DNA of 64,000 nt. It comes from Ignavibacteriota bacterium (lineage in GTDB: Bacteria > Bacteroidota > Ignavibacteria > UBA10030 > UBA6906). This document shows, one piece after another, positions 3,936-57,365 of this stretch. Every line of letters starts with the position of its first letter. Within the stretch, counting starts at the first letter, position 1. Below the pieces are notes generated by a model. The model worked only from the letters and a program-made list of their open reading frames with translations. It made no database searches and was not told where the DNA came from. Both the position numbers and the translations under genes were made by a program. The DNA lies in contig CAWJKM010000002.1 of the NCBI GenBank assembly GCA_963843525.1, positions 209,913 through 273,912 of the forward strand, given 5' to 3'.

Positions 3936-4601
3936 ATGTTCATAGGTCATTATGCGGTGGCTCTGGCCGCGAAGAAGGCCACCCCGAAAACATCTCTCGG
4001 GCTGTTGTTCATTGCGGCACAATTCCTTGATTTGCTCTGGCCCCTCCTGGTCGTTTTCGGTGTGGAGCACGTCGGCATCGCACCGGCGACCGATCCATTC
4101 TTACGGCTGAATTTCCTCAGCTATCCTTTCTCCCACAGCTTGTTCGGCGCTTCCGTCTGGGCACTCGCGCTCGGAGGGCTCGTGGTTCTCTTCCGGAGGG
4201 ATATCGCTGAAGGGCTCATCATCGCAGGCTGTGTGATCAGCCATTGGATTCTGGACTTCTTTACGCATCGGCCGGACCTTCCCCTCACGTTTGAAGACCG
4301 GACAAAAGTGGGGCTGGGCCTATGGAATTCTGTTGCATGGACCATGCTGGTAGAGGTGGCGTTGTTTGCCGGCGGCGTGTACCTGTATCTTCAGGTCACA
4401 AAGGCGAAGGACAAGATCGGCGTGTACAGTTTCTGGGGCCTGATCGGCATTCTCTTCGTTATCTACGTCGCCAACATTTTCGGTCCCCCTCCCACCGATG
4501 CATCCCAGATCGGACTCCTTGCGAACGCAGCATGGGTATTTGTCGTGTGGGCGTTTTGGACGGACAGGCATCGCGCGGTAAAGGAGAAGAGTAGGAAGTA
4601 A
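3936..4601 (+). CDS. membrane-bound metal-dependent hydrolase-like protein (YdjM/DUF457-like)
   Basis: Multi-pass membrane protein starting MFIGHYAVALA with His-rich short loops (HWILDFFTHRPD). Confidence 0.4.
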   Translation: MFIGHYAVALAAKKATPKTSLGLLFIAAQFLDLLWPLLVVFGVEHVGIAPATDPFLRLNFLSYPFSHSLFGASVWALALGGLVVLFRRDIAEGLIIAGCVISHWILDFFTHRPDLPLTFEDRTKVGLGLWNSVAWTMLVEVALFAGGVYLYLQVTKAKDKIGVYSFWGLIGILFVIYVANIFGPPPTDASQIGLLANAAWVFVVWAFWTDRHRAVKEKSRK

Positions 4602-4674
4602 GAAGTAAGAAGTAAGAAGAAGGAAGTATGCGGTATGCAGTAGGCAGTAGGCAGAAAGAAGACAGACAGATGCG
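4591..4674 (+). repeat. degenerate heptanucleotide tandem repeat (TANGNAG-type, about 12 units) immediately 3' of the stop codon
   Basis: gtaagaa g|taagaag|taagaag|aaggaag|tatgcgg|tatgcag|taggcag|taggcag|aaagaag|acagaca|gatgcgg; 7-nt periodicity read by eye. Confidence 0.7.
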
Positions 4675-4685
4675 GCCTGGATGGG

Positions 4686-6284
4686 CTACATCGCTCCATC
4701 GGTTTCAAGCTTGTCAAAGGAGAAACCAAACAGTTTCGGGTTCTCCCCGATCACCGCCGCTGAAAAAATGTAGTACACATAGTCGTAGGTCTGGCGGGGG
4801 ATGCGATCGCGATAGGTCTGGAGGAGAGCCCAGAAATTCCGTTGCCTCGGGTTTTCCGGAAGTGCCCGGATCAGACTCCTGACCGCATTAGGCCCCCAGT
4901 TGTATGATGCCAGGACCAGCAATCCCGACGCCTGCGCTTCCGTGTCATAGATATCCCGGATGTATGCCGCCGCTGCCAGAGTCGACTTTTCCGCGAGGTG
5001 CCGTTCATCGCGTGGATCGGACCGCGCAATCTGCACAAGCGGCCCGGTCCTCAATCCGTACTGTATGGCTGTTGAAGGGATGAATTGCCACATCCCCTTG
5101 GCTATTCCAAATCTCGTGGGCGGTCCGCACAGGGTGGTGTCGAACCCGCTTTCCTGGAGCGCGAGATAGAAGAATTGCGGTGGGAGGTGCTCGTCGAGCA
5201 TGCTGTGGGTGATGAGACGGTCGTACCCCAATTCATGCGCGCGCTGAATGGAACTCGGAAGTCTGTCGGAGAGTCTCCACTCTCTGATGTAGCGTTCCAC
5301 CTCTTTGACGAATCCTTTCGGCATGTCGACCTCGCACTCTCCGAACAGGCGGGCCATCCTGTAAATCGTCAGGGTTTTTTCGTCAGAAGTCCCCTTGTAG
5401 ATGCCGAGCTCATCAACGTACTGGTCATAGCTTCTGTTCATCTGATTCAGTTTGTCCCAGTACCGGGACATCAATACACGTGCGGACGTGTCTCCCGATG
5501 CCTGGACTTCCCTTTCGAGGTTCCTGAATCCCAGTTCCAGCTCTTTCATCTGATAGAACACATCTTTCGCCTTTGTTTCGAGCTCCTGGTATTGCGTGTG
5601 CTTGTAATAGGCATAGGCGAACCCTACAAGTCCGACGACGGCGAGCACTGCAACGTACTTCCGGTATCTCTTCCTTTCGTATTTGCCTGCCCGTTCTATG
5701 AATTTCCTGACGAGTTCCTTGTGCTCCTCCACCGAGATGATGCGTGTTGACGCACGGATCACATTTCGCAATTGAGCGGGAAGACGCAATGCATGCCGGT
5801 GTTCATGTTCATCGACGGCCGGTCGTTCGATCCTGAATCCGAGGACAGGCCCCGATGGTCCCAAGCGCGCCGAAACTCCCGTGGCGAGGGGTGTTGCTTC
5901 GATGGCCTTTCCATCGAGATAGATCCCCTTTGAACCCTCAACCGTGCGCAGCCACCAGCAGTCGTCTTCGAAGACGACCTGTGCGTGATGCGGACTCACA
6001 TTATTGGATCCGATGGAAACGTCGCTGCGGGGATCGCTTCCGATCGAGAACGGTTTGTCGAACCGGAGAATGGTGGCGGGCGCACCCGGATGTTCCAGCG
6101 ACACGAAGACGATCGGCCGGTGTGTTGGCGCAGCGGTCTGCGGGCTATGATCCATGGGCGATGCTCCTGCAGACGGTTGCCGTGGGAGGGGTAGAAATGA
6201 ACCTGTCGAAAAATTAAGAATTGGGGGAGTAAGTCGCAAGAGAGGGAATATGCTTCGGATCGGGGACTGTTCCCTCGCACACAC
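4686..6284 (-). CDS. FHA-domain / transmembrane / SLT-domain lytic transglycosylase
   Basis: N-terminal FHA signature (FSIGSDPRSDVSIGSN...VSPHHAQVVFEDDCWWLRTVEGSKGIYLDG), one TM helix (VAVLAVVGLVGFAYAYY), C-terminal SLT motifs (ESGFD...IAKGMWQFIPSTA, ...ASYNWG). The true start may be the internal Met at about 6155. Confidence 0.7.
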   Translation of the reverse strand: MCAREQSPIRSIFPLLRLTPPILNFSTGSFLPLPRQPSAGASPMDHSPQTAAPTHRPIVFVSLEHPGAPATILRFDKPFSIGSDPRSDVSIGSNNVSPHHAQVVFEDDCWWLRTVEGSKGIYLDGKAIEATPLATGVSARLGPSGPVLGFRIERPAVDEHEHRHALRLPAQLRNVIRASTRIISVEEHKELVRKFIERAGKYERKRYRKYVAVLAVVGLVGFAYAYYKHTQYQELETKAKDVFYQMKELELGFRNLEREVQASGDTSARVLMSRYWDKLNQMNRSYDQYVDELGIYKGTSDEKTLTIYRMARLFGECEVDMPKGFVKEVERYIREWRLSDRLPSSIQRAHELGYDRLITHSMLDEHLPPQFFYLALQESGFDTTLCGPPTRFGIAKGMWQFIPSTAIQYGLRTGPLVQIARSDPRDERHLAEKSTLAAAAYIRDIYDTEAQASGLLVLASYNWGPNAVRSLIRALPENPRQRNFWALLQTYRDRIPRQTYDYVYYIFSAAVIGENPKLFGFSFDKLETDGAM

Positions 6285-6433
6285 ATGATTAACAATTCGC
6301 GAACTAATATTGACTACTGACGAGAGAAGCTGTACCTTGAAAATACGGAAAACCGTGCATTGGGTGCCGGAAGTGAGGAGCTCTTAAAGTCAATCATCCC
6401 GTCAACTTGCAGGGGAAACATCTTACGGGAAGA

Positions 6434-6483
6434 CGATGAAGTAAGCCGTATGCCGTAGGCAGTATGCAGATGGCGATAGCAGC
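6434..6483 (+). repeat. heptanucleotide tandem repeat (TANGNAG-type) in the divergent promoter region
   Basis: gatgaag|taagccg|tatgccg|taggcag|tatgcag|atggcga|tagcagc. Confidence 0.6.
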
Positions 6484-6675
6484 CTCCTTCGTATCTCCCA
6501 GTTCTGTACTTTGACAACCGAAGCCTTTTCATCGCGATGATGGAAAGGCTTTTGCGGTCTATGGGGTGACGATCGATGATAGTCAGCCGGGGGAGCACTG
6601 ACCAGATCATGACCTGGTCGCCAATTTCCTCACCGGGGCTTGTGTCTGTAAAAGATCAAAGCAAAGGATGTCATT

Positions 6676-10730: not shown

Positions 10731-11687
10731 ATGGATCGAGGACTGGAAGGAAATCTTCGTCGACTCGTGACATGGTTGCTGAAGGGCGACCCTGCCATCC
10801 GCTGGCAGGTAATGCGCGACCTTCAGAGTGAACCCGAAGCCAAATGGATGGCAGAACAACGTCGTATCGCCGTCCAGGGATGGGGCGCTCGAATCCTCGC
10901 ACACCAGGATGAAGACGGCCGCTGGACACCCCGCTTCTATGGCCAGAAGTGGATCTCGACAACCTACGCGATGCTGTTGCTTCGTGATATGGGACTTGCC
11001 CATGACTACCGGGGTGCACGCAAAAGCTGTCTTCTCTTCCTGAATGAAGGACTGGGGGTCGATGGAGGAATCGTTCCTTCACGCTCATTTGGACGAAGCG
11101 AAGAGTGTGTCACCGGATTCGCTCTCAGGCTCCTCTCGTGGTTTCGGGTCGAGGACGAGCGCCGTGAGCGGGTCGTCGAATACTTGCTTCGCCGACAGAT
11201 GAGCGATGGCGGTTGGAACTGCCAGCGCTATCGGGGAGCGACCCATAGCTCGTTTCACACAACAATCAATGTGCTTGAAGGACTGCGAGATTACGTCGAT
11301 GCCTCCGGCCCTCGCTTGAAGGAGGTGCTGAAAGCGGAAGCACGGGCCCGCGAGTTCTTCCTCAGGCACCGTCTGTACTGCTCGCATAGAACAGGTACAG
11401 TTGCCAAAACCTCTTTTACACTATTCTCCTTCCCCCCGCGTTGGCATCATGACGTTTTGAGAACGCTGGACTACTTCAGGGCATCCAACAGTGAATATGA
11501 TGAACGTCTGGAAGATCCAGTCGGTTTGGTTCTGAACAAACGCCGCGATGACGGCACCTGGGCACTTCAAAACCGGCATCCAGGACGGACGTTTTTTGAA
11601 ATGGAACAGCCGGGAGCGGCGAGCCGGTGGAACACTCTGAGGGCGATGCGGGTGCTTGGATGGTGGGATAACGTCAGACTTAAATAA
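10731..11687 (+). CDS. alpha/alpha-toroid repeat protein with QW motifs (prenyltransferase or terpene-cyclase-like)
   Basis: Repeated Q..DG.W motifs (QDEDGRWTP, RQMSDGGWNCQRY, KRRDDGTWAL) characteristic of prenyltransferase beta-subunit and squalene-cyclase repeats. Confidence 0.5.
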   Translation: MDRGLEGNLRRLVTWLLKGDPAIRWQVMRDLQSEPEAKWMAEQRRIAVQGWGARILAHQDEDGRWTPRFYGQKWISTTYAMLLLRDMGLAHDYRGARKSCLLFLNEGLGVDGGIVPSRSFGRSEECVTGFALRLLSWFRVEDERRERVVEYLLRRQMSDGGWNCQRYRGATHSSFHTTINVLEGLRDYVDASGPRLKEVLKAEARAREFFLRHRLYCSHRTGTVAKTSFTLFSFPPRWHHDVLRTLDYFRASNSEYDERLEDPVGLVLNKRRDDGTWALQNRHPGRTFFEMEQPGAASRWNTLRAMRVLGWWDNVRLK

Positions 11688-20928: not shown

Positions 20929-21921
20929 TCATCCGGCCAGGATGGCATCGATGGTCTTGATCTCCCCGGCAGAAAACTCCAGGGTCTTCAGCGCCGCGAC
21001 ATTCTCTTCAAGTTGTGATATTCGGCTGGCGCCGATGAGTGCCGACGTGACCTCCGGATTTCTGAGCACCCAGGCAATGGACATTTGGGCAAGGCTTTGT
21101 CCGCGCCGGCGCGCAATCTCATGCAACGCACGCACTTTTGAGAGCTTGTCTTCGGTCACCTGCTCCGCCTTGAGAAATCCGTGCGGCTTCGCCGCGCGCG
21201 AGTCGGCGGGAATGCCGTTGAGATAGCGGTTCGTCAGCAGTCCCTGTGCCAGGGGGGAGAAGACGATGCACCCGATGCCTTCGTTGCTGAGCACGCGCAA
21301 AAGGTCGGGCTCCACCCAGCGGTTGAACATATTGTACACCGGCTGGTGAATCAAGCAGGGCGTTCCCAGCGATCGGAGGATCCCGGAGGCGCGTGCTGTC
21401 GCTTCGGCGGAATAGTTCGATATCCCCGCATAGAGTGCCCGACCGCTCCGCACGGCGAAATCCAGTGCCATCATGGTCTCTTCGAGAGGAGTATCGGGAT
21501 CAGGTCTGTGGGAATAAAAGATGTCCACATAATCGACGCCCATGCGCTTCAGACTCTGGTCGAGGCTTGCGATGAGATATTTTCGCGATCCCCACTCGCC
21601 GTACGGCCCGGGCCACATAAGATATCCGGCCTTCGTGGAGAGGATCAGCTCATCGCGATGGGCGCGGAGATCATCCCGGAGAATTTTGCCGAACGTCTCC
21701 TCCGCAGACCCGGGAGGAGGACCGTAATTGTTTGCAAGGTCGATGTGCGTGATCCCAAGATCGAATGCACGGAGGACAATGGAGCGCGCGGTGGCATGGT
21801 CATCAACGCCGCCGAAATTATGCCAGAGTCCGAGCGATACTCCGGGGAGCTTGATCCCGCTTTTTCCGCATCGGCGATAGGGTATCGCGTCGTATCGATT
21901 CGAGAGAGCTGTATAAGCCAT
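20929..21921 (-). CDS. aldo/keto reductase (YghZ-like)
   Basis: AKR motifs ([12 protein letters not shown], ...[15 protein letters not shown]). Start taken at [10 protein letters not shown]; the track ORF extends to 22047. Confidence 0.85.
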
Positions 21922-22011
21922 ACACCCCGCCAGGATGTTAGTTGAAAGGAAAGTCGAGGAAGCGGTGCCCGGTGACCCGTCGCAAGAAACATACAGCGCA
22001 TCTCTCCCGCC

Positions 22012-22100
22012 CACAGCTTTCTGCATACTGCCTACAGCTTTCTGCATACTGCCTACAGCTTACTGCTTACTTTCTTCTTCCTTCTTCATACTTCATACTC
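22012..22100 (-). repeat. heptanucleotide tandem repeat (TANGNAG-type on the minus strand) between the rhomboid and AKR genes
   Basis: Reverse complement: tatgaag|tatgaag|aaggaag|aagaaag|taagcag|taagctg|taggcag|tatgcag|aaagctg|taggcag|tatgcag|aaagctg. Confidence 0.7.
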
Positions 22101-22106
22101 TCCGTA

Positions 22107-22865
22107 TCACCCCTGACTGAATCTGTCCAGAAACTCTCTTTCGTTCATTGTCAGCGAATCGGTTCCTTCACCGTGGAGCTTCTTCATAATCCTGTCGTAC
22201 TCTTCACGGTTGACTTCGTGGAGCTTATCGCGTTGAATGCCGGACCATCGCCGAAGATCCCAGGAGGACGGCGATGGCACACGCACTTCGTGCGGAATCA
22301 ATGTCTCGCGATGGCGCTTGTCCAGCCAACGGACGTATAGCCATCCTCCCGCAAAACCTCCGAGGTGGGCAAAGTGTGCGATATTGCCGCCCATCCCTCC
22401 GAACCCGCCAAAGAGCGACAGACCGGTCAGGATCAGCACAAACCATCTCGCCTCAACCGGGAGGACGCCCCAGATGTAGATCTGATCCCTCGGCCAGAAG
22501 TGAGCGTAGCCGATGAGGACTCCGAAGATCGCCCCGGACGCCCCGATAATTGCGGTGTACGGAGTGAAAATAAATGAAAGCAGGCCGCCCATCATTCCGC
22601 TCACGAAGTACAGAATGAGAAAGTGTTTCGCACCGATTTCGAGTTCCAGGCGCGGTCCGAAGAAATAGAGCCCGAGCATGTTGAAGAACAGATGCCAGAT
22701 GCCGCCATGGAGGAACATATAAGTAATGATCGTCCACGGCCTCGTGAGGATGTAGATCGGCACCAGCATGAACTGTTCCGTAAACCCCGGGACAGCGACG
22801 GAGATGACGTAAACGATGACATTGGCCGCAATGAGGCGGAAAGACCAGCTGGTCATAGATGACAT
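22107..22865 (-). CDS. rhomboid family intramembrane serine protease
   Basis: [10 protein letters not shown] (GxSG) and AHLGGFAGG (His) motifs in TM helices; hydrophilic C-terminal extension. Confidence 0.85.
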
Positions 22866-23631: not shown

Positions 23632-23883
23632 TTCGCCTTCGCTTTCGTCCTTACTGCGTAAATTGTGTCAATCGGCCGCCAAAACCCCATGACCCGGCTC
23701 CGTTAATGACATAAATCCGGTGAATGTGCTAATCCCTGTGCGGGGAATCATTTGGAATCCAAGAGGTCCAGAGTGGCGAAACTTGGGGACTGTGGGCAAC
23801 TCAAATGGTAAGAGAAAAAGAGGAAAGAATAAACGCTTTCTGGGGACTTTCTTGACACAGAATTCTAATAATCCCCTAAATCT

Positions 23884-23940
23884 TCCGTTTTCCCCCCCTC
23901 TCCCCCTCTCCCCCTCCCCTCATCTCCCTTCTCCCCCCCG
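23884..23940 (+). repeat. C-rich low-complexity tract with about 7-nt periodicity (ctctccc-type heptads)
   Basis: ccccccctctccccctctcccctcccctcatctcccttctccccccc. Confidence 0.5.
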
Positions 23941-24028: not shown

Positions 24029-24859
24029 ATGTTGGTGGAAGAGAAGAAAATTGGATTCGATTATCAGCGGCGCTTAGACGGCAATTGCGGGCAACGTGCT
24101 CTCATGCATGCGCTGTTGATACTCGGACACCCTGTTTCGGAAGACGAGGCGCATCAGCTGACCGATCGGCCGCGATGGAAAACACGGCTCACTGGCACGG
24201 ACGAACGCCATATGAAACTTGGCGTCAGGCGGGCAGGGTTCAAGCCGTTGGCGCGGGTTTCATACGACCGGGCGGAAGCGCATCATGAAATCGACGCAAT
24301 GCTCGAAAGCAGTTTTCCCGTCATCATCTGCGTAGAAGATCAACAACATTGGGCCGTGCTTGCCGGAAAAGCCAGTTCGTCACAGTATTACTGGATCGAC
24401 TCCGCCGATGATGATCTTTATGGCACGTGGACCTGGACCGACATCGCAGACTGGATGGAAACCAACGGGGAGTATTACTTCATCGGGGTCGCACCGAAAA
24501 CGAAAGCGGACCGCCGCACCTCAGCCGTGCCCGATTTCTTCCGGATGTATCAGGGATTTGATGACGATGATCTTGCCGAATACTGGGGGTGGTATCTCGA
24601 GGACCTCCGGAAATGTTTCGATCTGCCGGAACACACGGCGGGCGCAATCAACGCCCGGGCGTTCTTCGAGAGGTATGGGAAGACGATCTACGACGCCTGC
24701 AAGGAGAGCTGTCGCTCCATTGACGAAGACCAGCTGCACTATGAATATGGGAATTACCGGAAAGTGGCGTTCGTGCATAACATGAGTGTCTCCCGTGAAC
24801 GCATCGAAGAAGCGATTGCGCGACTGACTTCGGCGGTGACGTTTACTGCAATGCTGTAG
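24029..24859 (+). CDS. standalone C39-like cysteine peptidase domain protein
   Basis: QRRLDGNCGQRALMHALLILG (Gln/Cys-Gly motif) and QQHWAVLAG (His motif) resemble peptidase C39/C39_2 catalytic motifs; no transporter domain. Confidence 0.4.
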   Translation: MLVEEKKIGFDYQRRLDGNCGQRALMHALLILGHPVSEDEAHQLTDRPRWKTRLTGTDERHMKLGVRRAGFKPLARVSYDRAEAHHEIDAMLESSFPVIICVEDQQHWAVLAGKASSSQYYWIDSADDDLYGTWTWTDIADWMETNGEYYFIGVAPKTKADRRTSAVPDFFRMYQGFDDDDLAEYWGWYLEDLRKCFDLPEHTAGAINARAFFERYGKTIYDACKESCRSIDEDQLHYEYGNYRKVAFVHNMSVSRERIEEAIARLTSAVTFTAML

Positions 24860-24955
24860 TCAGTTGACAGTATACAGTAAACGGTATACAGTATACGGTT
24901 AATAGTAATCAGCGGACAGGGAGTACGAATTACGATATATGATGTATGAAGACGG
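24855..24955 (+). repeat. heptanucleotide tandem repeat (TA.ACAG-type) just 3' of the stop codon
   Basis: tagtcag|ttgacag|tatacag|taaacgg|tatacag|tatacgg|ttaatag|taatcag|cggacag|ggagtac|gaattac|gatatat|gatgtat. Confidence 0.6.
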
Positions 24956-24976: not shown

Positions 24977-25849
24977 TCACGCCGATTCTTTGACGACAGC
25001 GACAAGATCTTCCACCTTCCATTCGTTTCCCCGAAACACCTTCACGAGTTTTCCTTCCGGGTTGATGACCGCCGTCCGAAGATTATGGTCTATCAATCCT
25101 TCACTGGGTTCATAGGTGAGTCCAAAGCCATCCACAAACTTTCCGAGCGCGTTGCCCGCTGTATCAGGATCAGTTGCGAAGTCCCACACCGAAAAGTCCG
25201 CCCCGTAATTCATTCCGTATTGTCTGAGAACCGCCGGCCGGTCGAATGACGGGTCGAAGCTGATCGAAAGCAGATGCCAGCGTCCATTGAGTGCCTGGTC
25301 GGACTTCAGGATTCGCTGCAGGTCGGCGAACTGCTGACTCATCCTGATGCAGAAATCCGGCAGCGGACACCGGGTATAAATGAACGTCAGAACAAGGGTC
25401 TTCCCGCGGAAGGTGGAGACCTGTAACGGATTCCCGTCCTGGTTGACGAGTTTCAGGTCGGGAATTGTCTCACCGTCGCGATAGAGATGCTTGAATTCTA
25501 TCTCTTCGGGAGTCATCGCGTTCACGGTCTCGCCGCGTCGGAGAACCTGGATCGTCTCAAGCCAGCTTTCTGTTCGCGATACGGCCAGCGTGGCGCCGAT
25601 GGAATCGCCCACTGCGATCCTGTTCAGCAATGAAAGGTCTTTGATCTTAAACGGCATGGTCATTGCAGGCATGTAGTCGGGAATCGCCTCGTGCGACACC
25701 GTTACCCGGTGAGCAGTGGAATCGATGCCGACGACTTTGCCCCGGAGGGGGAACGTGACCATGTCGACGGGTTGTTTTTCCCTGGCGCAAGAGAAGAACA
25801 CACAGGAAATGAAAAGTGCGAGAGCGAGCGGGCGCATTGTGGGAATCAT
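24977..25849 (-). CDS. SCO1/SenC family copper chaperone-like lipoprotein
   Basis: Thioredoxin-like TFIYTRCPLPDFC and DHNLRTAVINPEG motifs, plus a Met-rich MTMPF segment. Start taken at the ATG that overlaps the barstar stop codon (ATGA). Confidence 0.75.
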   Translation of the reverse strand: MIPTMRPLALALFISCVFFSCAREKQPVDMVTFPLRGKVVGIDSTAHRVTVSHEAIPDYMPAMTMPFKIKDLSLLNRIAVGDSIGATLAVSRTESWLETIQVLRRGETVNAMTPEEIEFKHLYRDGETIPDLKLVNQDGNPLQVSTFRGKTLVLTFIYTRCPLPDFCIRMSQQFADLQRILKSDQALNGRWHLLSISFDPSFDRPAVLRQYGMNYGADFSVWDFATDPDTAGNALGKFVDGFGLTYEPSEGLIDHNLRTAVINPEGKLVKVFRGNEWKVEDLVAVVKESA

Positions 25850-26304
25850 CCAATTGTGAGGCCGGTGGCCCCGAGTCGTTGCCTTGTCGATGTCTCCCCT
25901 TCCGGCGTGCATTGAAAGATGACCCGTTCGAGCGGCGTCTCTTCGAGTTCATGGACCGTCTGGAGAATGGAGGCAAGAGTCCGGAGATCACCGTCATGAC
26001 GGGGGAGCAGATTGTCTGCATTTGTGATTACGAGAATCAGCTGCTCCGCGCCCAGCCATTCGAGATCGCCCAGACATTCTTCGAGGGCGTCCCAGTTGTC
26101 TCCGAAATAGTGGGGAAACTGAAGAGCGGCGGCGAATTCCTGAAACAGCCGTTCCCGCGTCTGGCATCGTTGTCCCCTGAGTATCCGCGCAGCCTTCCCG
26201 TTTCGTCCCTGTATTTCCGAAGTAAGATCGTCGATCTCACTTTCAGTGACGGCGAGAAGGTGGACCCACAGGGAGAGTCCTTCCAATTCAGTGTAAGTGA
26301 TCAC
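25846..26304 (-). CDS. barstar-family ribonuclease inhibitor
   Basis: ...LFQEFAAALQFPHYFGDNWDALEECL... is characteristic of barstar. Confidence 0.7.
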   Translation of the reverse strand: MITYTELEGLSLWVHLLAVTESEIDDLTSEIQGRNGKAARILRGQRCQTRERLFQEFAAALQFPHYFGDNWDALEECLGDLEWLGAEQLILVITNADNLLPRHDGDLRTLASILQTVHELEETPLERVIFQCTPEGETSTRQRLGATGLTIG

Positions 26305-34470: not shown

Positions 34471-34517
34471 CCCCACTCGGCATGGCCCCAGTTGGCTGAA
34501 GTGCAATAGGGAAAACT

Positions 34518-34770
34518 ATGGCAGGCTAGGCAACCAGAAATTCCCTCTGCGCAAGGCAAAAACATGGCAGGCTAGGCAACCAGAAATTCCCTCTGCGCAA
34601 AGCAAAATCATGGCAGCCTAGGCAACCAGAAATTCCCCCTGCGCAAGGCAAAAACATGGCAGCCTAGGCAACCAGAAATTCCCTCTGCGCAAAGCAAAAT
34701 CATGGCAGCCTAGGCAACCAGAAATTCCCTCTGCGCAAAGCAAAATCATGGCAGCCTAGGCAACCAGAGG
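34518..34770. repeat. 46-bp direct tandem repeat, 5.5 copies (atggcagSctaggcaaccagaaattccctctgcgcaaRgcaaaaWc)
   Basis: Units begin at 34518, 34564, 34610, 34656, 34702 and 34748 (partial); there are no spacers, so this is not a CRISPR array. Confidence 0.9.
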
Positions 34771-49545: not shown

Positions 49546-50524
49546 AGCGCGAAGGCTTCGAAAGGATCATGCCTGTCTCTCGGTCGTAGATGTTGATGGG
49601 GTAGGTTATGAAGAGATGTTCCTTCGCCCGGGTGCACGCGACATACATCAGCCTTCGTTCCTCCTCCAGCGCATCATCATCTGCCGCCGCCCGCGTGACC
49701 GGGAACCTCCCTTCGAGCGCGTACATGACGAACACCGTATTCCACTCCAACCCCTTCGCGCTGTGAATCGTGGAGAGGATGAGCTTCTCATCGTCGTTTC
49801 CCGGGTCGCTGATGTCGGTGACGCTCTCCGTCGCCGGCTCAAGCGCGAGATCGGTCAGGAGCGTCGACAGAGAACGATACCGTTCGGTGATCTGCTGGAA
49901 CATCTCCAGATCCTTTGCCCGCTTGTGATGATCATCGTACCGGAGCTTAAAAATCGGCTCGTAGTATTGGAGGAGTCGTTGGACACGGTCGGCCGGCATA
50001 AGATGATCCGGTGCGGCATCGTTCAACGCCTCGAAGAGCAGGGCGACTTTGTCCGGGTACGTGATCGCATTGCCTTTGACTGCCGGGAGCCGGCTCGATG
50101 CCGGAGTGCCGGGAGCGAGGCGTTTCGAAAGGATGTCGTTGAGAACCTTCTCCGCCGTGCGGGGTCCCACCCCTTCGACCAGGAGGAGGATACGGTTCCA
50201 TGCGACCGCGTCGCGGGGGTTCTCCAGGACGCGAAGATAGGAAACGATATCCTTGATGTGCGCCGTCTCCATGAGCTTCAATCCGCCGTACTTGACGAAG
50301 GGGATGTTTGCTTTCGTGAGTTCCACTTCGAGATCAAACGAGAGATAGCCCGATCGGAAGAGGACGGCGATGTCGGTCAGTGGAATCCCCTCTTCGCGAA
50401 GTTCGAGGACGCGCTGGACGATGAACCGCGACTGGATATTTTCCGTCTGCGTAGTCACAATGGCCGGCAGTTCACCGCCGGTCCTGTGTGTGTACAGCGC
50501 TTTCGAGAACTTGTGCCTGGTCAT
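49490..50524 (-). CDS. UvrD/PcrA-family helicase, C-terminal half (domains 2A/2B, motifs V-VI)
   Basis: ...DIAVLFRSGY...IPFVKYGG...ILSTIHSAKGLEWNTVFV...EEERRLMYVACTRAKEHLFITY. The ATG overlaps the stop of the upstream methyltransferase gene (ATGA). Confidence 0.8.
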   Translation of the reverse strand: MTRHKFSKALYTHRTGGELPAIVTTQTENIQSRFIVQRVLELREEGIPLTDIAVLFRSGYLSFDLEVELTKANIPFVKYGGLKLMETAHIKDIVSYLRVLENPRDAVAWNRILLLVEGVGPRTAEKVLNDILSKRLAPGTPASSRLPAVKGNAITYPDKVALLFEALNDAAPDHLMPADRVQRLLQYYEPIFKLRYDDHHKRAKDLEMFQQITERYRSLSTLLTDLALEPATESVTDISDPGNDDEKLILSTIHSAKGLEWNTVFVMYALEGRFPVTRAAADDDALEEERRLMYVACTRAKEHLFITYPINIYDRETGMILSKPSRFIDGIPEQLLERWTPVDE

Positions 50525-51402
50525 TCTTTTCCCTTGCTCCACGGGTCCTTCGCGGCAGGCGGGAAAGCATCCCGGATTCGGCGCACGTACTCCGGCGTGG
50601 TGCCGCAGCATCCGCCCACGAATATCGCCCCGAGATCGATCCAGCGCCCGGCGAACGCCGCATACTCTTCCGGCTCCACGTCGCACTGCATCGTTGCCTC
50701 CCGTTCCTCGCCCGGCATGCCCACGTTCGCGTACACGCCGAACGGGAGCGATGCGGCCTTCCGCAGCCGTTCGACCGCGCGGTCGATGATACGCGGAGAC
50801 ATACAGTTTATCGAAAGGGCGTACGGGTGATACGGTTCGACGCGGCGGACAGCCTCCTCAAGAGGTTTGCCGTCATACAGGTTCCCGCCGGCATCGCACA
50901 GAAAGCTCACGATGGTCGGAACGCCGGTGGACACGGCAGCTTTACACGCCGCTTCCGCCTCTCTGGACGTCCCCATGGTCTCCAGCAGCAGCATATCCAC
51001 ACCTGCCTCTGCCAATCGTTGTGCGTGGAGGGCGTGTTCCGCGGCCAGCGCATCATCGGGCGGGACACGCTCGGGATGGTAGCAGTCTTCGAGCGGCCCC
51101 ATCGAGCCGGCGATCTTCACTGTTCTTCCGGGGAAGGCATTCCGTGCCTCGTTGGCCAGTGCAACGGCTAATTGCGTCAGCTCGGCGGAGCGGTCTGGGA
51201 GCCCCGCGCGCCGGAACGTCCTGGGTGTCGTGCGGAAAGTGTTGGCGGTGATCAGATCAGCGCCGGCAGCGATGTACTCTTCATGGAGTGTGCGGACCAA
51301 TCCCGGGTCGTCAACCAACGCGTTTGCCGACCAGAGCGGCAGATTCGTGTTCGCGCCTCTTCGCGCGAGCTCGGTCCCGATTGCGCCGTCAAGGATGAAC
51401 AT
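50521..51402 (-). CDS. homocysteine S-methyltransferase domain protein (MmuM/BHMT-like)
   Basis: MFILDGAIGTEL...LWSA..., AGADLITANTF, and zinc-binding GGCCGTTPEY. The track ORF extends to 51453 through a repeat tract; start taken at MFILDG. Confidence 0.8.
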   Translation of the reverse strand: MFILDGAIGTELARRGANTNLPLWSANALVDDPGLVRTLHEEYIAAGADLITANTFRTTPRTFRRAGLPDRSAELTQLAVALANEARNAFPGRTVKIAGSMGPLEDCYHPERVPPDDALAAEHALHAQRLAEAGVDMLLLETMGTSREAEAACKAAVSTGVPTIVSFLCDAGGNLYDGKPLEEAVRRVEPYHPYALSINCMSPRIIDRAVERLRKAASLPFGVYANVGMPGEEREATMQCDVEPEEYAAFAGRWIDLGAIFVGGCCGTTPEYVRRIRDAFPPAAKDPWSKGKE

Positions 51403-51403
51403 C

Positions 51404-51495
51404 GCTCTCTCCCTTTCCCCCCGTCCCCAGTCCCCAAGTCTCCCAGTCCCCAAGTCCCCAAGTCTCCCACTCTCCCCCTCAGTCCCTCGCCCTTC
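51404..51495. repeat. C-rich 7-8-nt periodic repeat (gtcccca / agtctccca units) at the helicase-N / methyltransferase junction
   Basis: gtcccca gtcccca agtctccca gtcccca agtcccca agtctccca ... Confidence 0.6.
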
Positions 51496-52471
51496 GTATG
51501 ATCTCGTTTGTCAAATCCAGTATCGGCTGCGTGCTCCGGTAATTTTCTTCGAGCTTCACGATCTTGCATTCCGTGAATTGATCCGGGAATTCGAGAATAT
51601 TCCGTACCGTCGCGCCGCGGAAGCTGTAGATCGACTGTGCATCGTCTCCCACGACCATGAGGTTGCCATGATGTGAGGCGAGGAGCCGGACAATCTCGGC
51701 TTGAATCAGGTTCGTGTCCTGATATTCATCCACCATGATATATTTGTAGCGCTCACACACCGTCGTCCTGACCGACTCCACATCGCGGAGCAGTTTCCGG
51801 AGATACAGAAGGAGATCGTCGTAGTCCATCAGGTTATGCTGGGACTTGTACTCTTCGAACGCCTTCTGGAGGACGAGGATCTCTTCGAGATAATTCTCGT
51901 AATGGGGGTATTCCTCCTGGAGAATCTCACGCACGGGGCGGACGGTGTTGACGGCTTTGGAGAAGATGTCGTAGAGCGTCTGTTTGCGCGGGAAGCGTTT
52001 CTCCTTCGTGTCGAACTTGAAACGTGTCCGGAGAAGGTTCACGACGTCTTCTGCGTCGCCCTGATCGAGGATACTGAACGACGAATCGAATCCGATGAGC
52101 GACGCGTACTGGCGGAGGAGGAGGTTCGCAAAAGAGTGGAACGTCCCGCCGGCGACGTTTTCGCATCGGGCATCGAGGAGCATGGAGGCGCGGCGGAGCA
52201 TTTCCTGCGCCGCCCGCCGGGTAAACGTCAGGAGCAGAATCGCTTCCGGTTTAACTCCGAGTTCCACAAGATACGCAACCCGGTAGACGATGGTCCTGGT
52301 TTTCCCCGTTCCCGCACCGGCGATAATCAGGTGCGGACCATTGACAGATGACACAGCTTCGTACTGGGCCGGATTGAGCTGGTTCCGGTAGTCGATCTGA
52401 AACGTGTGTTGACCGGGAGACTCCGCAGCCGGTTCGGGGTACGGGGTCTTTTTGAGAAGGTATTTTTTCAT
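51479..52471 (-). CDS. UvrD/PcrA-family helicase, N-terminal half (domains 1A/1B, motifs Q, I-IV)
   Basis: LNPAQYEAV, Walker A AGAGTGKT, Walker B MVDEYQDTN, VGDDAQSIYSFRGA, NYRST. The ORF ends inside the repeat tract a few residues after motif IV. Confidence 0.8.
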   Translation of the reverse strand: MKKYLLKKTPYPEPAAESPGQHTFQIDYRNQLNPAQYEAVSSVNGPHLIIAGAGTGKTRTIVYRVAYLVELGVKPEAILLLTFTRRAAQEMLRRASMLLDARCENVAGGTFHSFANLLLRQYASLIGFDSSFSILDQGDAEDVVNLLRTRFKFDTKEKRFPRKQTLYDIFSKAVNTVRPVREILQEEYPHYENYLEEILVLQKAFEEYKSQHNLMDYDDLLLYLRKLLRDVESVRTTVCERYKYIMVDEYQDTNLIQAEIVRLLASHHGNLMVVGDDAQSIYSFRGATVRNILEFPDQFTECKIVKLEENYRSTQPILDLTNEIIRRARD

Positions 52472-53603: not shown

Positions 53604-54461
53604 TCAGCCGCCGACCTGGATTCCGGTGAGAATCACAAACACCGACCAGAGGATCCAGAGAGCGAAGACGAGGACCAGGATCTTGTTCAGATCTTTCCGG
53701 AAAAGGCGGGAGAGCCCGATGCTGACGACGACAAGGTCCCAGATGGTGAAGAAATTGACCTTGCTCAGTGCGACATCCAGCTTATTCTGCACAGAGAACC
53801 CGTTGAGGACAAAGAGCGCGAGATTGGGACCTGCGTGGAGGTGGTCGAAGGCGATCGCCATGATGGTTGTGACGATCGATTCCAGGCTCCCGATGAAGAA
53901 TGTGAGACCGACAATTTCCACCACTTTCATATAGGGTGCTGATACCTTCATCACCGTCCTTCCGAGCAGCCAGTAGACCAGGCAGACAAGGAAGAGGGCG
54001 ATGGGGGTCACGATCAGGAGCGCGCCGCCTGTGGTGATCATCATCCAGGGTGAAGCGGGGTCGGTGAACTTTTCCATCTGCTCGCGTGCCTGGTCGGCCT
54101 GTTCGGGAGTCATTTTCCCGCTCTGGATCGACTCCTGGAACCGCTGTTCCGTGGATTCGCGTATCTGGGTTCGTAACTGGTCGGCAAGCGACGGGTTCCG
54201 GAGCATCATCTGTGACATCCCGAACGAAACAACGATGAAGATGATGAGAGGAATGACCCAGTTCGAAGGAGTGGAAGCGGTATCCCGGACGTTGTCGAAG
54301 AGCTCCCCCGGTGAAGCGAAGACATTGGTCAGTTTTTCTGTGAAGGACATCGGCTTGACGGTGGATTCGCCTGTTGGCGTCGTGGTAGATAGGTCATCCA
54401 TGGATGGCTCCTTTGATGGTTGGGAACAGCCCAACGTAGCGAAAACCCCTTTGAGAATCAA
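53604..54461 (-). CDS. Yip1-like multi-pass membrane protein
   Basis: Hydrophilic N-terminal third followed by five or more TM helices. Confidence 0.4.
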   Translation of the reverse strand: MILKGVFATLGCSQPSKEPSMDDLSTTTPTGESTVKPMSFTEKLTNVFASPGELFDNVRDTASTPSNWVIPLIIFIVVSFGMSQMMLRNPSLADQLRTQIRESTEQRFQESIQSGKMTPEQADQAREQMEKFTDPASPWMMITTGGALLIVTPIALFLVCLVYWLLGRTVMKVSAPYMKVVEIVGLTFFIGSLESIVTTIMAIAFDHLHAGPNLALFVLNGFSVQNKLDVALSKVNFFTIWDLVVVSIGLSRLFRKDLNKILVLVFALWILWSVFVILTGIQVGG

Positions 54462-54497
54462 TGGGTTTTAGAGACGACATTTTTGACGTCTCCCCAC

Positions 54498-54526
54498 TTG
54501 ACAAGACGACAAATTTGTCGTATCGT
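54498..54526 (+). promoter_or_regulatory. sigma70-like promoter (TTGACA-17-TATCGT) with a perfect 14-bp palindrome CGACAAATTTGTCG in the spacer, upstream of dinB
   Basis: ttgaca at 54498-54503, 17-nt spacer, tatcgt at 54521-54526; palindrome at 54507-54520; read directly. Confidence 0.5.
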
Positions 54527-54556
54527 ACCTGTGAACTCACCCCCTGCCCCTCTCTT

Positions 54557-55714
54557 ATGACTCTCTTCATCCATCTTGATCTCGATTGCTTCTTCGCCGC
54601 CGTCGAGACCGTCCTGCATCCCGAACTTCGCGGTGTTCCGCTCTGTGTCGGGGGGCAGCGGGGAGGACGGGGGATTGTGACCTGTCCGAATTACGAGGCG
54701 CGCGCGTATGGTGTCCGGACGGCCATGTCGGTGCGTGCGGCGGAACAGCTCCTGCCGCGGGGCGCCGTGTTCCTCCGGGGGAACCATCACCTGTATGGTG
54801 AATATTCACGGCGTGTCATGACGGTTCTGGAATCGTTTACGCCCGAAGTGCGACAACGGAGCATCGATGAAGCGCTGATGGAAGTCGGGGGATGCCTTCA
54901 CTTCTGGGGCCACGATCCGGCCCGCATGGGGCAGGCGATCAAGGACCGGGTCCGTACGGAAACGGGCCTGACGATCTCCGCCGGTGTTGCGCCCAACCCC
55001 CTGTGCGCGAAGATCGCAGCCGGATGGCGTAAACCCGACGGTCTCGTGGTGATCCCTCATGGCGAAGTACAGGAATTCCTTGCGCCGTTGCCGGTGGACG
55101 TTGTGCCCGGAATCGGCAAAAAGACCGCGCCGCGTCTTGCCATGCACGGCATCCGGACAGTGAGTGATCTGATTGCCCGGCGGCCGCCCCGCGAGAGCTG
55201 GCTCGGTTCGCTGCTCCGGGGATTGCTTGATGAAACGGGAAGTTCAGGACGGCACGACGCTGATGCTGTTGAGCACTCGATCTCGCGCGACAGGACATTC
55301 GGTCAGGATACTGCCGACCGGGAACAGATCGAATCGACGCTCTTCCTGCTGACCGAGCGTTGCTGCAAAACCCTCCGGGTCGAGGGGCTCGCGGCATCGA
55401 CGGTGACCCTGAAGGTACGTTTCGCGGATTTCACCACCGTGCAGAAGCAGGAAACGCTGCCCGCGGCGGTGGTGAACGAAGAGCAGATCTTCGCGGCCGT
55501 CCTGCTGCTGCTGGGCGACCTTCTTCCGCCCTGGCGGTTTGTGCGTCTTGTCGGGGTGAAGGTGTCCCATCTTTCCCCGCTGGAAGGACAGCAACTCACA
55601 CTCGATGCCGGGACGTCGGAACGACTGCATGAGCTGCACCGCCGGGTGGATGCGCTGCAGGAACGGTTTGGAGAAGCGAGCGTGCGGTGGGGAAGAGGGG
55701 TGGGGACATTTTAA
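54557..55714 (+). CDS. dinB: DNA polymerase IV (Y-family)
   Basis: Y-family motifs (HLDLDCFFAAVE, SIDEA...) and length about 385 aa. Start taken at MTLFIHLD; the track ORF begins at 54461. Confidence 0.85.
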   Translation: MTLFIHLDLDCFFAAVETVLHPELRGVPLCVGGQRGGRGIVTCPNYEARAYGVRTAMSVRAAEQLLPRGAVFLRGNHHLYGEYSRRVMTVLESFTPEVRQRSIDEALMEVGGCLHFWGHDPARMGQAIKDRVRTETGLTISAGVAPNPLCAKIAAGWRKPDGLVVIPHGEVQEFLAPLPVDVVPGIGKKTAPRLAMHGIRTVSDLIARRPPRESWLGSLLRGLLDETGSSGRHDADAVEHSISRDRTFGQDTADREQIESTLFLLTERCCKTLRVEGLAASTVTLKVRFADFTTVQKQETLPAAVVNEEQIFAAVLLLLGDLLPPWRFVRLVGVKVSHLSPLEGQQLTLDAGTSERLHELHRRVDALQERFGEASVRWGRGVGTF

Positions 55715-55752
55715 ATTTTAGATTTTAGAATTTAGATTTTAGATTTTAGACT
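55710..55752 (+). repeat. TTTAGAT heptanucleotide tandem repeat (about 6 copies) immediately after the dinB stop
   Basis: tttaaat|tttagat|tttagaa|tttagat|tttagat|tttagac. Confidence 0.8.
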
Positions 55753-55929
55753 GGTTCAGGCGAGGTCATAGGGCACACCGTCATAAGCATGGGCTTCAGG
55801 CGCTCTGATTTAGGCGCGCCGTCATTGCCACGACCTTCAGGTCGTGGGCAAATTTCAAGAGGCGCTCTCTAACCAGTGAGGGGTTTTAACCCCCCTCAGT
55901 GGTTCTATCGACCAGTGTCCGATTGACTT

Positions 55930-57002: not shown

Positions 57003-57365
57003 CTGTAGGTCGGGTCGCTGACCCGACCAATTCAGACGGGAGACACTGCATGGCCGGCGGGACGGGTCTGGCGACCCGTCCTACAAATGGACACTCTGTA
57101 GGTCGGGTCGCTGACCCGACCAATTCAGACGGGAGACACTGCGTAGCCGGCGGGACGGGTCTGGCGACCCGTCCTACAAATGGGCACTCTGTAGGTCGGG
57201 TCGCTGACCCGACCATCTCAGACGGGAGACACTGCGTAGCCGGCGGGACGGGTCTGGCGACCCGTCCTACAAATGGACACTCTGTAGGTCGGGTCGCTGA
57301 CCCGACCATCTCAGACGGGAGACACTGCGTAGCCGGCGGGACGGGTCTGGCGACCCGTCCTACAG
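57003..57365. repeat. 93-bp tandem repeat, about 3.9 copies, each unit carrying two perfect 9-bp-stem hairpins (REP/BIME-like)
   Basis: Units begin at 57003, 57096, 57189 and 57283. Hairpins are GGTCGGGTCgctGACCCGACC and GGACGGGTCtggcGACCCGTCC. The array sits directly 5' of a RAYT-like transposase remnant. Confidence 0.85.

Follow-up and report, generated by a model that had tools for sequence, protein, structure and literature searches.

To our knowledge, the heptanucleotide repeats of bacteria have been known for decades, but neither their function nor the way in which they arise is agreed upon. The first, those of cyanobacteria, are said to have been reported in 1990, and their units are CCCCAGT, TTGGTCA and CAACAGT. 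They are termed short tandemly repeated repetitive sequences, or STRR (Mazel et al. 1990, as cited in PMC4692102). [quoted passage not shown] Going by these passages, a 7-nt periodicity in non-coding DNA is not unusual, contrary to what a sequence-only reading of the DNA studied here had held.

The GGGAATC repeats of Xanthomonas and the GGGGA(C/T)T repeats of Nostoc PCC 7120 are degenerate, dispersed and mostly intergenic, with genome-specific units; their length and sequence vary between related genomes, and they form convergent inverted pairs (PMC4692102). Their stop-codon-hugging polarity is already published (Rehm et al. 2015, PMC4692102), the gap on the 5' ORF side of the Xanthomonas repeats averaging 28 nt against 160 nt. 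By inspection, GGGAATC contains no stop codon in either orientation. The TAACTGA repeats of Beggiatoaceae, Cyanobacteria and some Bacteroidetes are also intergenic and are mixed with related heptamers (MacGregor 2015, PMC4679880). Their spread across phyla is patchy, close relatives often have no array in the same spacer, and indels occur in 7-nt steps (PMC4679880). Overlap with stop codons, length variation in 7-nt steps and a slippage hypothesis are all part of what has been published on heptamers (PMC4692102, PMC4679880).

The DNA analysed here is a 64,000-nt stretch (the window) from the genome of an uncultured member of the Bacteroidota, and it carries six such arrays. They fall into a class that has been described before, the intergenic heptanucleotide simple-sequence repeats (LSSR/STRR-like): 7-nt units stand head to tail in non-coding DNA, form a dispersed family, vary between relatives and mostly lie on the stop side of genes. 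They match the LSSR of prokaryotes in unit length, in being longer than chance allows and in non-coding position, and nothing contradicts their membership. They resemble the GGGAATC and GGGGA(C/T)T repeats in degeneracy, dispersal, mostly intergenic position, genome-specific units and variation between related genomes, and convergent inverted pairs are also formed by AGTAGGC-type arrays in other genomes. They differ in that arrays 1-5 are rich in A, G and T and incapable of forming G-quadruplexes, in that the main units carry stop codons, in the host and in showing no four-unit preference. With the TAACTGA repeats they share the intergenic position, the admixture of related heptamers and the patchy cross-phylum spread that includes Bacteroidetes, and the polarity agrees when those repeats are read as TCAGTTA. 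In the Beggiatoaceae genome BOGUAY, however, TAACTGA lies just upstream of start codons (PMC4679880), whereas the window arrays lie just downstream of stops, and identity with the TAACTGA repeat was rejected as TAACTGA is absent from both strands of the window. Cyanobacterial STRR are tandem intergenic heptamers too; here the host is not cyanobacterial and arrays 1-5 have other units. STRR in the strict sense, a feature of heterocystous cyanobacteria, was likewise rejected, CCCCAGT being confined to array 6 and neither TTGGTCA nor CAACAGT occurring in tandem in the window. The present arrays add a new host lineage, uncultured Bacteroidota, and the unit family AGTAGGC, AGTAAGA, which we did not meet in print in the literature searched.

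Period-7 arrays in the window

The sequence-only reading had listed four loci with heptanucleotide repeats, and all four are confirmed to carry period-7 arrays. Tandem Repeats Finder placed them at 4590-4661, 6436-6469, 22009-22099 and 24867-24899 of the window. A lag-match scan of the window at a threshold of at least 24/35 matches returned four regions at period 7 (4576-4672, 22014-22103, 24851-24909 and 55695-55761), two at period 8 and none at periods 2-6 and 9-13, while block shuffling gave a mean of 0.015 regions at period 7. A threshold of 22/35 added 6428-6482 and 24908-24952, with a null of 0.22. Lag-7 identity at loci 1-4 was 0.75, 0.55, 0.71 and 0.63, compared with 0.15-0.30 at lags 6 and 8, and it ranged from 0.55 to 0.81 across the arrays. 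The periodicity is therefore significant against shuffled sequence at the scale of the window, which was a check that the earlier reading had proposed. Its period of 7 stands, although the word "strict" does not, since the units are degenerate. Its "7-50 copies" was too generous at the upper end: the unit counts of loci 1-4 are about 12, 7, 13 and 13, with only six or seven clear units in locus 4, so that the maximum is near 13. Two further arrays of the window, at 55707-55755 and 51408-51484 (7/8-nt), had been missed.

Array 1 (4590-4673, plus strand) consists of 12 units and fills the 84-nt spacer between two convergent genes. The upstream gene (3936-4601, plus strand) encodes a membrane protein of 221 aa that matches YdjM weakly, and the opposing gene (4686-6155, minus strand) encodes a 489-aa protein with FHA and SLT transglycosylase domains that is 100% identical to a MAG protein (P0121). 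The units run AGTAGGA, AGTAAGA (three times), AGAAGGA, AGTATGC, GGTATGC, AGTAGGC (twice), AGAAAGA, AGACAGA and CAGATGC, and the TAA stop of the upstream gene sits within unit 2. The array is 79% purine, with stop codons in all three sense frames and none in antisense. Array 2 (6438-6486, plus strand) is located in the 520-nt spacer between the same FHA-SLT gene (minus strand) and a divergent PEGA gene (plus strand). Its roughly seven degenerate units begin GCCGTAT, GCCGTAG, GCAGTAT, GCAGATG, and with a lag-7 identity of 0.55 it is the weakest of the set; no real gene precedes it, and only a 32-codon ORF terminates inside.

Array 3 (22009-22099, minus strand) has 13 units and lies between a rhomboid protease gene (22107-22865, minus strand) and an aldo/keto reductase gene (20929-21921, minus strand; the 330-aa form also seen in relatives). 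On the minus strand its first part reads AGTATGA (twice), AGAAGGA, AGAAGAA and AGTAAGC (twice), and its second part is two copies of the block TGTAGGC, AGTATGC, AGAAAGC followed by TGTGGGC, giving a 21-nt higher-order repeat with 92% matches. The array starts 7 nt after the TGA stop of the rhomboid gene, with the first AGTATGA unit at 9 nt, and leaves about 88 nt to the reductase start; all three sense frames contain stops, and the antisense frames none. Array 4 (24862-24952, plus strand) lies between convergent genes, 2 nt after the TAG stop of a gene for a 276-aa protein of unknown family (24029-24859, plus strand) and facing a CusF/SCO1 gene (24977-25912, minus strand). Its core (24862-24903, lag-7 identity 0.71) reads AGTTGAC, AGTATAC, AGTAAAC, GGTATAC, AGTATAC, GGTTAAT, AGTAATC and passes into a degenerate tail.

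Array 5 (55707-55755, plus strand) is a sevenfold AGATTTT repeat with 91% matches, in which the order is ATTTTAA, ATTTTAG (twice), AATTTAG and ATTTTAG (twice). Its first unit contains the TAA stop of a Y-family (impB/mucB/samB) DNA polymerase gene (54461-55714, plus strand). Array 6 (51408-51484, minus strand) is G-rich and alternates between 7 and 8 nt, with GGGGACT, GGGGACTT and GGGAGACTT as units of STRR1/GGGGAYT type, which we equate with the STRR1 unit CCCCAGT or with CCCCAAGT, an 8-nt variant of it. The TGA stop of a 330-aa ORF (51479-52471, minus strand), whose sole domain is the N-terminal one of UvrD helicase, falls within the array, and about 5 nt separate the array's end from the assigned start codon of the next gene (50521-51402). 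Array 6 matches twice, as a motif only, the sequence pattern of G-quadruplex-forming GGGGAYT repeats (at least four runs of three or more G with short loops), and arrays 1-5 have no G-runs. All six arrays are outside coding sequence, overlapping at most the last codons or the stop codon of a gene. The closest proteins to those encoded in the window are from Bacteroidota MAGs.

Arrays 1-3 share one unit family (AGTAGGC/AGTATGC/AGTAAGA), of which array 4 (AGTATAC) is a more distant variant. Three successive TANGNAG units with at most two mismatches gave 17 in-phase matches, all within loci 1-3, where 0.02 would be expected by chance. The TANGNAG family of the earlier reading is thus sound for loci 1-3 and only loosely related to locus 4. 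Identical sub-blocks are common to the loci, as had been claimed: GTAKGCAGTAKGCAG was found five times (loci 1, 2 and 3) compared with 0.00 expected, and GAAGAAGGAAG twice (loci 1 and 3) compared with 0.04. The proposal that the loci are degenerate heptanucleotide tandem repeats, dispersed as a family through intergenic DNA, holds. Recent block duplications are visible as the perfect threefold AGTAAGA of array 1, the 21-nt repeat (92%) of array 3 and a 14-nt repeat in array 4.

The arrays fold weakly (z-scores mostly -0.2 to -1.8), an Rfam search returned no match for them, and no inverted partner or palindrome was found at any window array. Counts of intrinsic terminators (a G+C-rich hairpin plus a U-tract) in the window were no higher than in shuffles, and none fell inside an array. 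This agrees with the earlier statement that neither hairpins or terminators nor codon structure explains the repeats. REP/BIME/REPIN elements are similar in being intergenic, at gene 3' ends and in having a GTAG motif, and AGTAGGC arrays in other genomes occur as inverted pairs; the window arrays, in contrast, are contiguous 7-nt units without palindrome or inverted partner rather than hairpins of 20-40 nt, and this class was rejected. A CRISPR array was rejected because the units are 7 nt and contiguous, not repeats of 23-50 nt with unique spacers, and a phase-variation repeat because five of the six arrays lie downstream of stops, with only array 2 in a divergent promoter region. Elsewhere in the window, at 57003-57364, are four REP-like doublets, hairpins with GTAGG heads.

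Placement at gene ends and turnover between genomes

Five of the six arrays begin between -25 and +10 nt from the stop of the upstream gene and are on its coding strand. Random placement would achieve this for 2.9% of arrays, so that P is about 1e-7 for five of six. The positional enrichment at stop codons that the earlier reading had suggested looking for is therefore present in the window, and its observation that three of four loci start right after an upstream stop is true of loci 1, 3 and 4, and of arrays 5 and 6 as well. Arrays 1, 3, 4 and 5 have sense stops in all three frames; array 6 has a single stop.

A scan of genome contigs gave at least 120 stretches with similar arrays, a figure of breadth and not of frequency. 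Isolate genomes such as those of Mesorhizobium, Maribacter and Vibrio have them, and cultured carriers among the matches listed were Mesorhizobium loti DSM 2626, Maribacter polysiphoniae and Aurantibacter aestuarii. In the fetched loci of other genomes, 202 of 260 period-7 arrays were within two mismatches of AGTAGGC. The 58 arrays with three or more mismatches contained AGT or ACT in 14 cases (15.0 expected) and CAGT in two (2.6 expected); an AGT/CAGT anchor shared by all heptamer families was rejected, there being no enrichment over expectation. For AGTAGGC arrays across many phyla, the gap on the 5' side was the smaller in 64/81, with medians of 3.5 nt and 73.5 nt. The array's own TAG ends the upstream ORF in 30/83 sense cases, 4 or 11 nt in. 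TCAGTTA arrays show the same polarity in an orientation without stop codons. Inverted pairs occurred solely as AGTAGGC...GCCTACT (34 to 0 and 33 to 0), with the same unit type in both arms and with loops that are unrelated at orthologous sites, and no preference for four units was visible in AGTAGGC arrays. The placement rules of the G-rich heptamers therefore also apply to a non-G4 family across many phyla, which extends the published evidence and argues against G-quadruplex formation as their general explanation.

Arrays were also kept across related phage-like contigs. The loci on viral contigs were clustered before counting, since 23 of 47 AGTAGGC loci formed one related family, as did 70 of 107 TAACTGA loci; raw counts were for this reason discarded as proof of unit preference. 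After clustering, AGTAGGC was represented by 21 clusters, TAACTGA by 28 and three composition-matched permutations of AGTAGGC by 3, 7 and 2, making AGTAGGC 3-10 times commoner than the controls. With regard to the decay of unit identity from 5' to 3', the 3' tail was slightly longer in genome loci, and this was absent in viral loci.

The spacers of the window were compared with those of relatives at 83-88% protein identity. The C-termini of the rhomboid and of the 276-aa protein (TFTAML before the stop) are conserved in relatives, and the arrays begin past the conserved stop. The rhomboid-reductase spacer is 185 nt with its array in the window; in two relatives (L317, L318) it measures about 96 nt and contains an array that is collinear but diverged. 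It has no array in three others (75 nt in L001, 14 nt in L004, 56 nt in L319), and in L003 it is 242 nt and holds a different palindromic element. The relatives' spacers are thus unrelated, absent or occupied by a diverged array, and presence, length and unit content differ both among relatives and among related viral contigs. At the spacers of arrays 1 and 2, relatives L314 and L315 showed no synteny. A Logan assembly of run ERR12037368 has the same gene pair around array 2 with a spacer of 523 nt instead of 520 nt, a 3-nt difference in start codon.

Possible origins of the arrays

We hold with moderate confidence that the arrays are repeats of STRR/LSSR type that grew by slippage of a stop-adjacent seed at sites tolerant of insertions. 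The starting point would have been the tandem duplication of a 7-nt seed at or beside a stop codon, and slipped-strand mispairing or unequal exchange of blocks of one, two or three units would have led to growth, shrinkage and diversification, with point mutation adding to unit diversity. Tolerance of insertions just past stop codons would account for accumulation there. As units carry TAA, TAG or TGA in sense and none in antisense, an array could abut or supply a stop and the protein would not be lengthened. Transcription of the arrays is probable and would yield 3' tails that are rich in purines and lack structure, and an essential sequence-specific function at these loci seems unlikely. Neutral slippage nevertheless leaves two observations unexplained, the strong polarity (64/81; inverted pairs 34 to 0 and 33 to 0) and the excess of AGTAGGC over its permutations (21 clusters compared with 3, 7 and 2). 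The TCAGTTA polarity in a stop-free orientation means that the argument from stop-codon tolerance is not general, and persistence at orthologous spacers, at about 15% protein divergence, and in related phage-like contigs hints at maintenance.

Alternatively, the arrays may serve as cis-elements with a function at the boundaries of genes, either as multivalent platforms to which an RNA- or DNA-binding protein attaches or as transcript-end elements with an influence on how 3' ends form, how stable the mRNA is, how well genes are insulated from convergent transcription or how strongly the next gene is expressed. We regard this as a minority view that could be right. The polar placement by ORF ends in the window and across phyla, the unit preference common to very distant phyla and phage-like contigs, the retention of arrays at orthologous spacers and the exclusively convergent pairs with one unit type in both arms are all consistent with it. 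In Nostoc constructs, a recO promoter reporter changed in activity when heptamer repeats were deleted (bioRxiv 10.1101/2022.06.06.494920), and binders of the S1, Csp or CsrA type have been suggested for TAACTGA repeats (PMC4679880). Against this, equally diverged relatives do without arrays in these spacers and show no visible effect, and in the window the units are highly degenerate in sequence, number and order; there is no conserved structure, Rfam family or known binder, and the adjoining genes are of unrelated function. A bolder version, which we think distinctly improbable, is that AGTAGGC arrays are cross-phylum, partly phage-borne gene-boundary elements with a selected unit and a fixed polarity, read by a conserved protein or written by a conserved enzymatic step and not produced by passive slippage. 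The purine-rich array may then follow the stop, its complement precede the start and pairs be convergent only. If true, this would open a way to explain STRR and heptamer repeats in general.

That each sense frame of arrays 1, 3, 4 and 5 contains a stop (and no antisense frame of arrays 1 and 3 does), and that the array's own TAG ends the upstream ORF in 30/83 sense cases elsewhere, would suit a three-frame translational fail-safe, in which at least three copies of a stop-bearing 7-nt unit catch read-through or frameshifted ribosomes. We give this little credence: there is but one stop in array 6, array 2 does not follow a gene, and up to 13 units are present where three suffice. Three-frame stops as the general cause of the polarity were rejected, because TCAGTTA arrays hug stops in their stop-free orientation and GGGAATC arrays, without stops either way, have equal polarity nonetheless. 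A footprint of a sequence-specific enzymatic or mobile process, rather than of general slippage, is harder still to credit. It might involve GTAG-type nicking and rejoining by a REP-associated tyrosine transposase (RAYT), or stuttering of a primase or polymerase at CAGT. In favour of such a process, in which the link to RAYT biology would be a putative one, the dominant units here contain GTAG(G), the doublets at 57003-57364 have GTAGG heads, the AGTAGGC arrays elsewhere are REPIN-like inverted pairs and the unit preference spans phyla. However, no transposase was among the window ORFs tested, the loops of paired arrays are unrelated at orthologous sites, the AGT/CAGT anchor is not enriched (14 compared with 15 expected) and other well-known heptamer families have no GTAG. 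Chance low-complexity sequence or an assembly artefact can be practically dismissed. The source is a metagenome-assembled genome, in which repeats can be mis-assembled, but four to six regions were observed compared with 0.015 to 0.22 in shuffles, the arrays (49-91 nt) are below typical read length, the independent assembly of ERR12037368 has a matching array 2 spacer length, and Mesorhizobium, Maribacter and Vibrio isolates have similar arrays.

For annotation, the six spacers are best described as hypervariable simple repeats; terminators, small RNAs and small genes are not what they hold. Opposite-strand ORFs that run across the arrays, such as 6314-6610 and 21942-22340, are spurious.

Period-7 arrays at stop codons

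Tandem Repeats Finder placed period-7 arrays in the window at 4590-4661, 6436-6469, 22009-22099 and 24867-24899. With 24/35 matches required, a lag-match scan gave four period-7 regions (4576-4672, 22014-22103, 24851-24909 and 55695-55761) against a mean of 0.015 in 200 block shuffles, so the periodicity described in the sequence-only reading stands well clear of shuffled sequence. The same scan found two regions of period 8 and none of periods 2-6 or 9-13 in the window. When the threshold was lowered to 22/35, locus 2 (6428-6482) and, in locus 4, the tail at 24908-24952 were picked up as well, with 0.22 regions expected. At loci 1-4, here arrays 1-4 (4590-4673, plus strand; 6438-6486, plus; 22009-22099, minus; 24862-24952, plus), lag-7 identity was 0.75, 0.55, 0.71 and 0.63, compared with 0.15-0.30 at lags 6 and 8. 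Two further arrays were detected: array 5, seven copies of AGATTTT (55707-55755, plus), and array 6, a G-rich 7/8-nt repeat of GGGGACT and GGGGACTT (51408-51484, minus).

The proposed TANGNAG family was borne out by 17 matches to three consecutive units (up to two mismatches), all in register and all within loci 1-3 (0.02 expected). Shared sub-blocks were likewise recovered, with GTAKGCAGTAKGCAG occurring five times across loci 1, 2 and 3 (0.00 expected) and GAAGAAGGAAG twice (0.04 expected). Locus 4 had been assigned to this family, but its unit, AGTATAC, is outside the consensus. Up to 50 copies had been claimed; the arrays contain approximately 12, 7, 13 and 13 units. The 7-nt repeat is real and statistically solid, and its original description is correct except for copy number and the supposed rarity of such repeats, discussed below.

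Gene calls were based on ORF maps and Pfam matches. Array 1 fills the whole 84-nt spacer between the convergent genes of a 221-aa membrane protein and an FHA-SLT protein, and contains the TAA stop of the former. Array 2 lies in a 520-nt divergent spacer, where the sole ORF ending inside it has 32 codons. Array 3 begins 7 nt past the stop codon that closes a rhomboid protease gene (its first clear unit is at 9 nt) and ends ~88 nt before a co-directional aldo/keto reductase gene. Array 4 starts 2 nt past the TAG of a gene encoding a 276-aa protein, which converges with a CusF/SCO1 gene. A Y-family DNA polymerase gene has its TAA stop within the first unit of array 5. The TGA of a 330-aa ORF is overlapped by array 6, which ends ~5 nt short of the start assigned to a co-directional homocysteine S-methyltransferase gene. 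Five of the six arrays thus start between -25 and +10 nt from a same-strand gene stop. A random position in the 7.2 kb of intergenic DNA would do so in 2.9% of cases, giving P ~1e-7 for at least five of six. This enrichment agrees with the earlier claim that arrays begin at the upstream gene's stop in the sense orientation, which holds for loci 1, 3 and 4. The sense strands of arrays 1 and 3 are 73-79% purine and carry stop codons in all three frames; the other strand has none.

The 330-aa ORF (51479-52471, minus), whose TGA is in the first unit of array 6, matches only the N-terminal domain of UvrD helicase. No C-terminal helicase domain follows downstream, and the ORF may be a truncated gene. 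Genes for the Y-family polymerase, a family B DNA polymerase and a DUF72 protein are nearby.

Nothing points to the arrays being RNA or terminator elements, in keeping with the original view that terminator hairpins do not explain them. Terminator-like sites were no more frequent than in shuffles, no inverted partners of the window arrays were found, and an Rfam search gave no match. RNA folds were weak (z -0.2 to -1.8) except that of array 3 (z -2.9). Separately, a hairpin with a 13-bp stem (AAGCCTTTTCATC / GATGGAAAGGCTT) followed by TTTG is located at 6521-6551 on the plus strand, ~40 nt downstream of array 2. It had no Rfam match; an unannotated short transcript of the divergent spacer could terminate at it.

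Array turnover among related genomes

The FHA-SLT protein has a 100% identical counterpart, P0121, on a 525-kb contig whose MAG carries the label Bacteroidota bacterium. Synteny around arrays 3 and 4 was found in relatives whose rhomboid proteins are 83-88% identical. The C-termini of the rhomboid and of the 276-aa protein (TFTAML*) are conserved in these relatives, and the arrays start past those stops. The rhomboid-reductase spacer is 185 nt in the window, with array 3. In the related loci L317 and L318 it is ~96 nt and holds an array of about nine units of the array 3 family, collinear with array 3 over approximately seven units. It is 75 nt in L001, 56 nt in L319 and 14 nt in L004, all without an array, and 242 nt in L003, with copies of an unrelated palindromic element. 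Past the 276-aa gene, the spacer measures 117 nt in the window and 4 nt in L001, and its L003 counterpart contains a GGGGACTT-type array that starts 13 nt past the true SCO1 stop. An isocitrate/isopropylmalate dehydrogenase-family gene of L315 (Pfam Iso_dh) has an AGTAGAC/AGTGGAC array starting at its stop. The differences among spacers show that arrays come and go, and can persist with turnover of their units while keeping the position rule.

Two other features of these regions were observed. SCO1/CusF of L003 (4920-5900) was called at 250 aa, its frame being lost ~75 codons before the conserved C-terminus, which reflects a frameshift or else an error of assembly. A C-rich 8-nt repeat (CCCCCTCT, ~5.6 copies) occupies 23881-23937 between a TPR gene and the 276-aa gene, at a position where L001 and L003 have a ~700-aa gene that the window does not.

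Heptamer arrays across phyla and in viral contigs

The arrays had been regarded as unusual, but heptanucleotide repeats are the most over-represented long simple-sequence repeats (LSSRs) in many bacterial genomes, with polymerase slippage as their proposed cause, according to the summaries of Mrazek 2007 in PMC4679880 and PMC4692102. TAACTGA arrays occur in Beggiatoaceae, Cyanobacteria and five Bacteroidetes, show 7-nt indels and are often missing from the same spacer of the closest relative (MacGregor, PMC4679880). GGGAATC arrays of Xanthomonas (89-93% intergenic) and GGGGAYT arrays of Nostoc lie far nearer their 5' neighbouring ORF (in Xanthomonas, 28 nt versus 160 nt on average), and arrays often form pairs of convergent orientation (Rehm et al., PMC4692102). 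Deletion of heptamer repeats is reported to change recO reporter activity in Nostoc (preprint, bioRxiv 10.1101/2022.06.06.494920). The window arrays agree with these published repeats in every tested feature. They belong to the known heptamer-repeat class and would be recognised at once by a specialist as STRR- or LSSR-like; their novelty lies in the host lineage and in the unit family, AGTAGGCAGTAGGC not being found in print in the literature searched. By itself, the window offers no way into the unsolved problem of heptamer-repeat function.

The regularities of AGTAGGC arrays across phyla are a more interesting lead. Species-representative genomes scanned for GTAKGCAGTAKGCAGTAKGCAG gave at least 120 stretches, with ~0.5 expected by chance on our own estimate from the collection size. 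Among the matches listed, hosts included Acidobacteriota, Bacteroidota, Planctomycetota, Verrucomicrobia, Chloroflexia, one cyanobacterium, Mesorhizobium, Vibrio and others; 118 of 120 loci were mutually unrelated, and 202 of 260 period-7 arrays were within two mismatches of AGTAGGC. For the 116 AGTAGGC-type arrays among these matches, in 64 of 81 cases the 5' end in the AGTAGGC orientation was the one closer to an ORF (p = 1e-7), stops on the sense strand were at a median gap of 3.5 nt versus 73.5 nt for those on the antisense strand (p = 5e-8), and co-directional placements were 30 sense versus 16 antisense. Opposite-orientation pairs within 250 nt were always AGTAGGC...GCCTACT (34 to 0 at the genome loci listed; 33 to 0 at viral loci). 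A mixed array of AGTAAGA and AGTAGGC, the unit combination of window array 1, was seen in a Verrucomicrobia MAG from Guaymas Basin (L022, 3753-3868).

In related phage-like viral contigs, we compared an orthologous spacer between two co-directional genes, which we take to be terminase and portal. L145 (1980-2140), L156 and L165 have inverted AGTAGGC pairs of differing copy number, L144 is arranged alike with AGTAGGG units, the array in L127 is a direct one, and L152, L159 and L164 have none. The two arms of a pair always match in unit type (AGTAGGC or AGTAGGG), which differs between contigs. Perfect three-unit runs, counted after clustering related viral contigs, occurred in 28 independent clusters for TAACTGA, 21 for AGTAGGC, 13 for AGTAAGA and 5 for CCCCAGT. 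Permutations with the base composition of AGTAGGC gave 7 (AGATGGC), 3 (AGGTAGC) and 2 (AAGTGGC), which suggests a unit preference, as judged from just these three controls.

Origin of the arrays and other repeats

We consider it probable that the arrays arise when a 7-nt seed at or beside a stop codon is duplicated by slipped-strand mispairing, and would then grow and shrink in blocks of one, two or three units. A perfect (AGTAAGA)x3, a 14-nt repeat and a 21-nt higher-order repeat are direct traces of such block expansion and contraction. Arrays may persist because the first nucleotides past a stop codon tolerate insertions, and since AGTAGGC-family units supply sense stops the protein would not be lengthened. 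We infer that slippage generates the arrays, that they are transcribed and that they have no sequence-specific role. Polarity, exclusive pair order, unit preference and retention at orthologous sites lie outside the reach of neutral slippage, and these four features keep alive the idea of a functional cis-element, which we hold to be rather unlikely. The stops themselves could act as a three-frame fail-safe, but TCAGTTA and GGGAATC have the same polarity without stops, so this is not a general rule and is improbable. Even less credible is a writer that acts sequence-specifically, for example a REP-type transposase, for which the evidence is the GTAG motif and the GTAGG-headed, REP-like hairpins at 57003-57364; the window ORFs tested included no transposase. 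That the arrays are an artefact is very unlikely, the least probable reading of all.

The 57003-57364 cluster lies directly after the TAG stop of an ORF at 55930-56994 and consists of 3.9 copies of a 93-bp unit at 97% identity. Each unit contains two of the REP-like, GTAGG-headed hairpins in inverted orientation (GTAGGTCGGGTC...GACCCGACC and GTAGGACGGGTC...GACCCGTCC), an arrangement like that of BIME or REPIN clusters. At 34512-34768 there are 5.6 copies of a 46-bp unit (95% identity) with GGTTGCCTAGGCTGCC as palindromic core. Four copies of this core are also present in the L003 rhomboid-reductase spacer (10751-10992), so the element is REP- or MITE-like and dispersed in this lineage.
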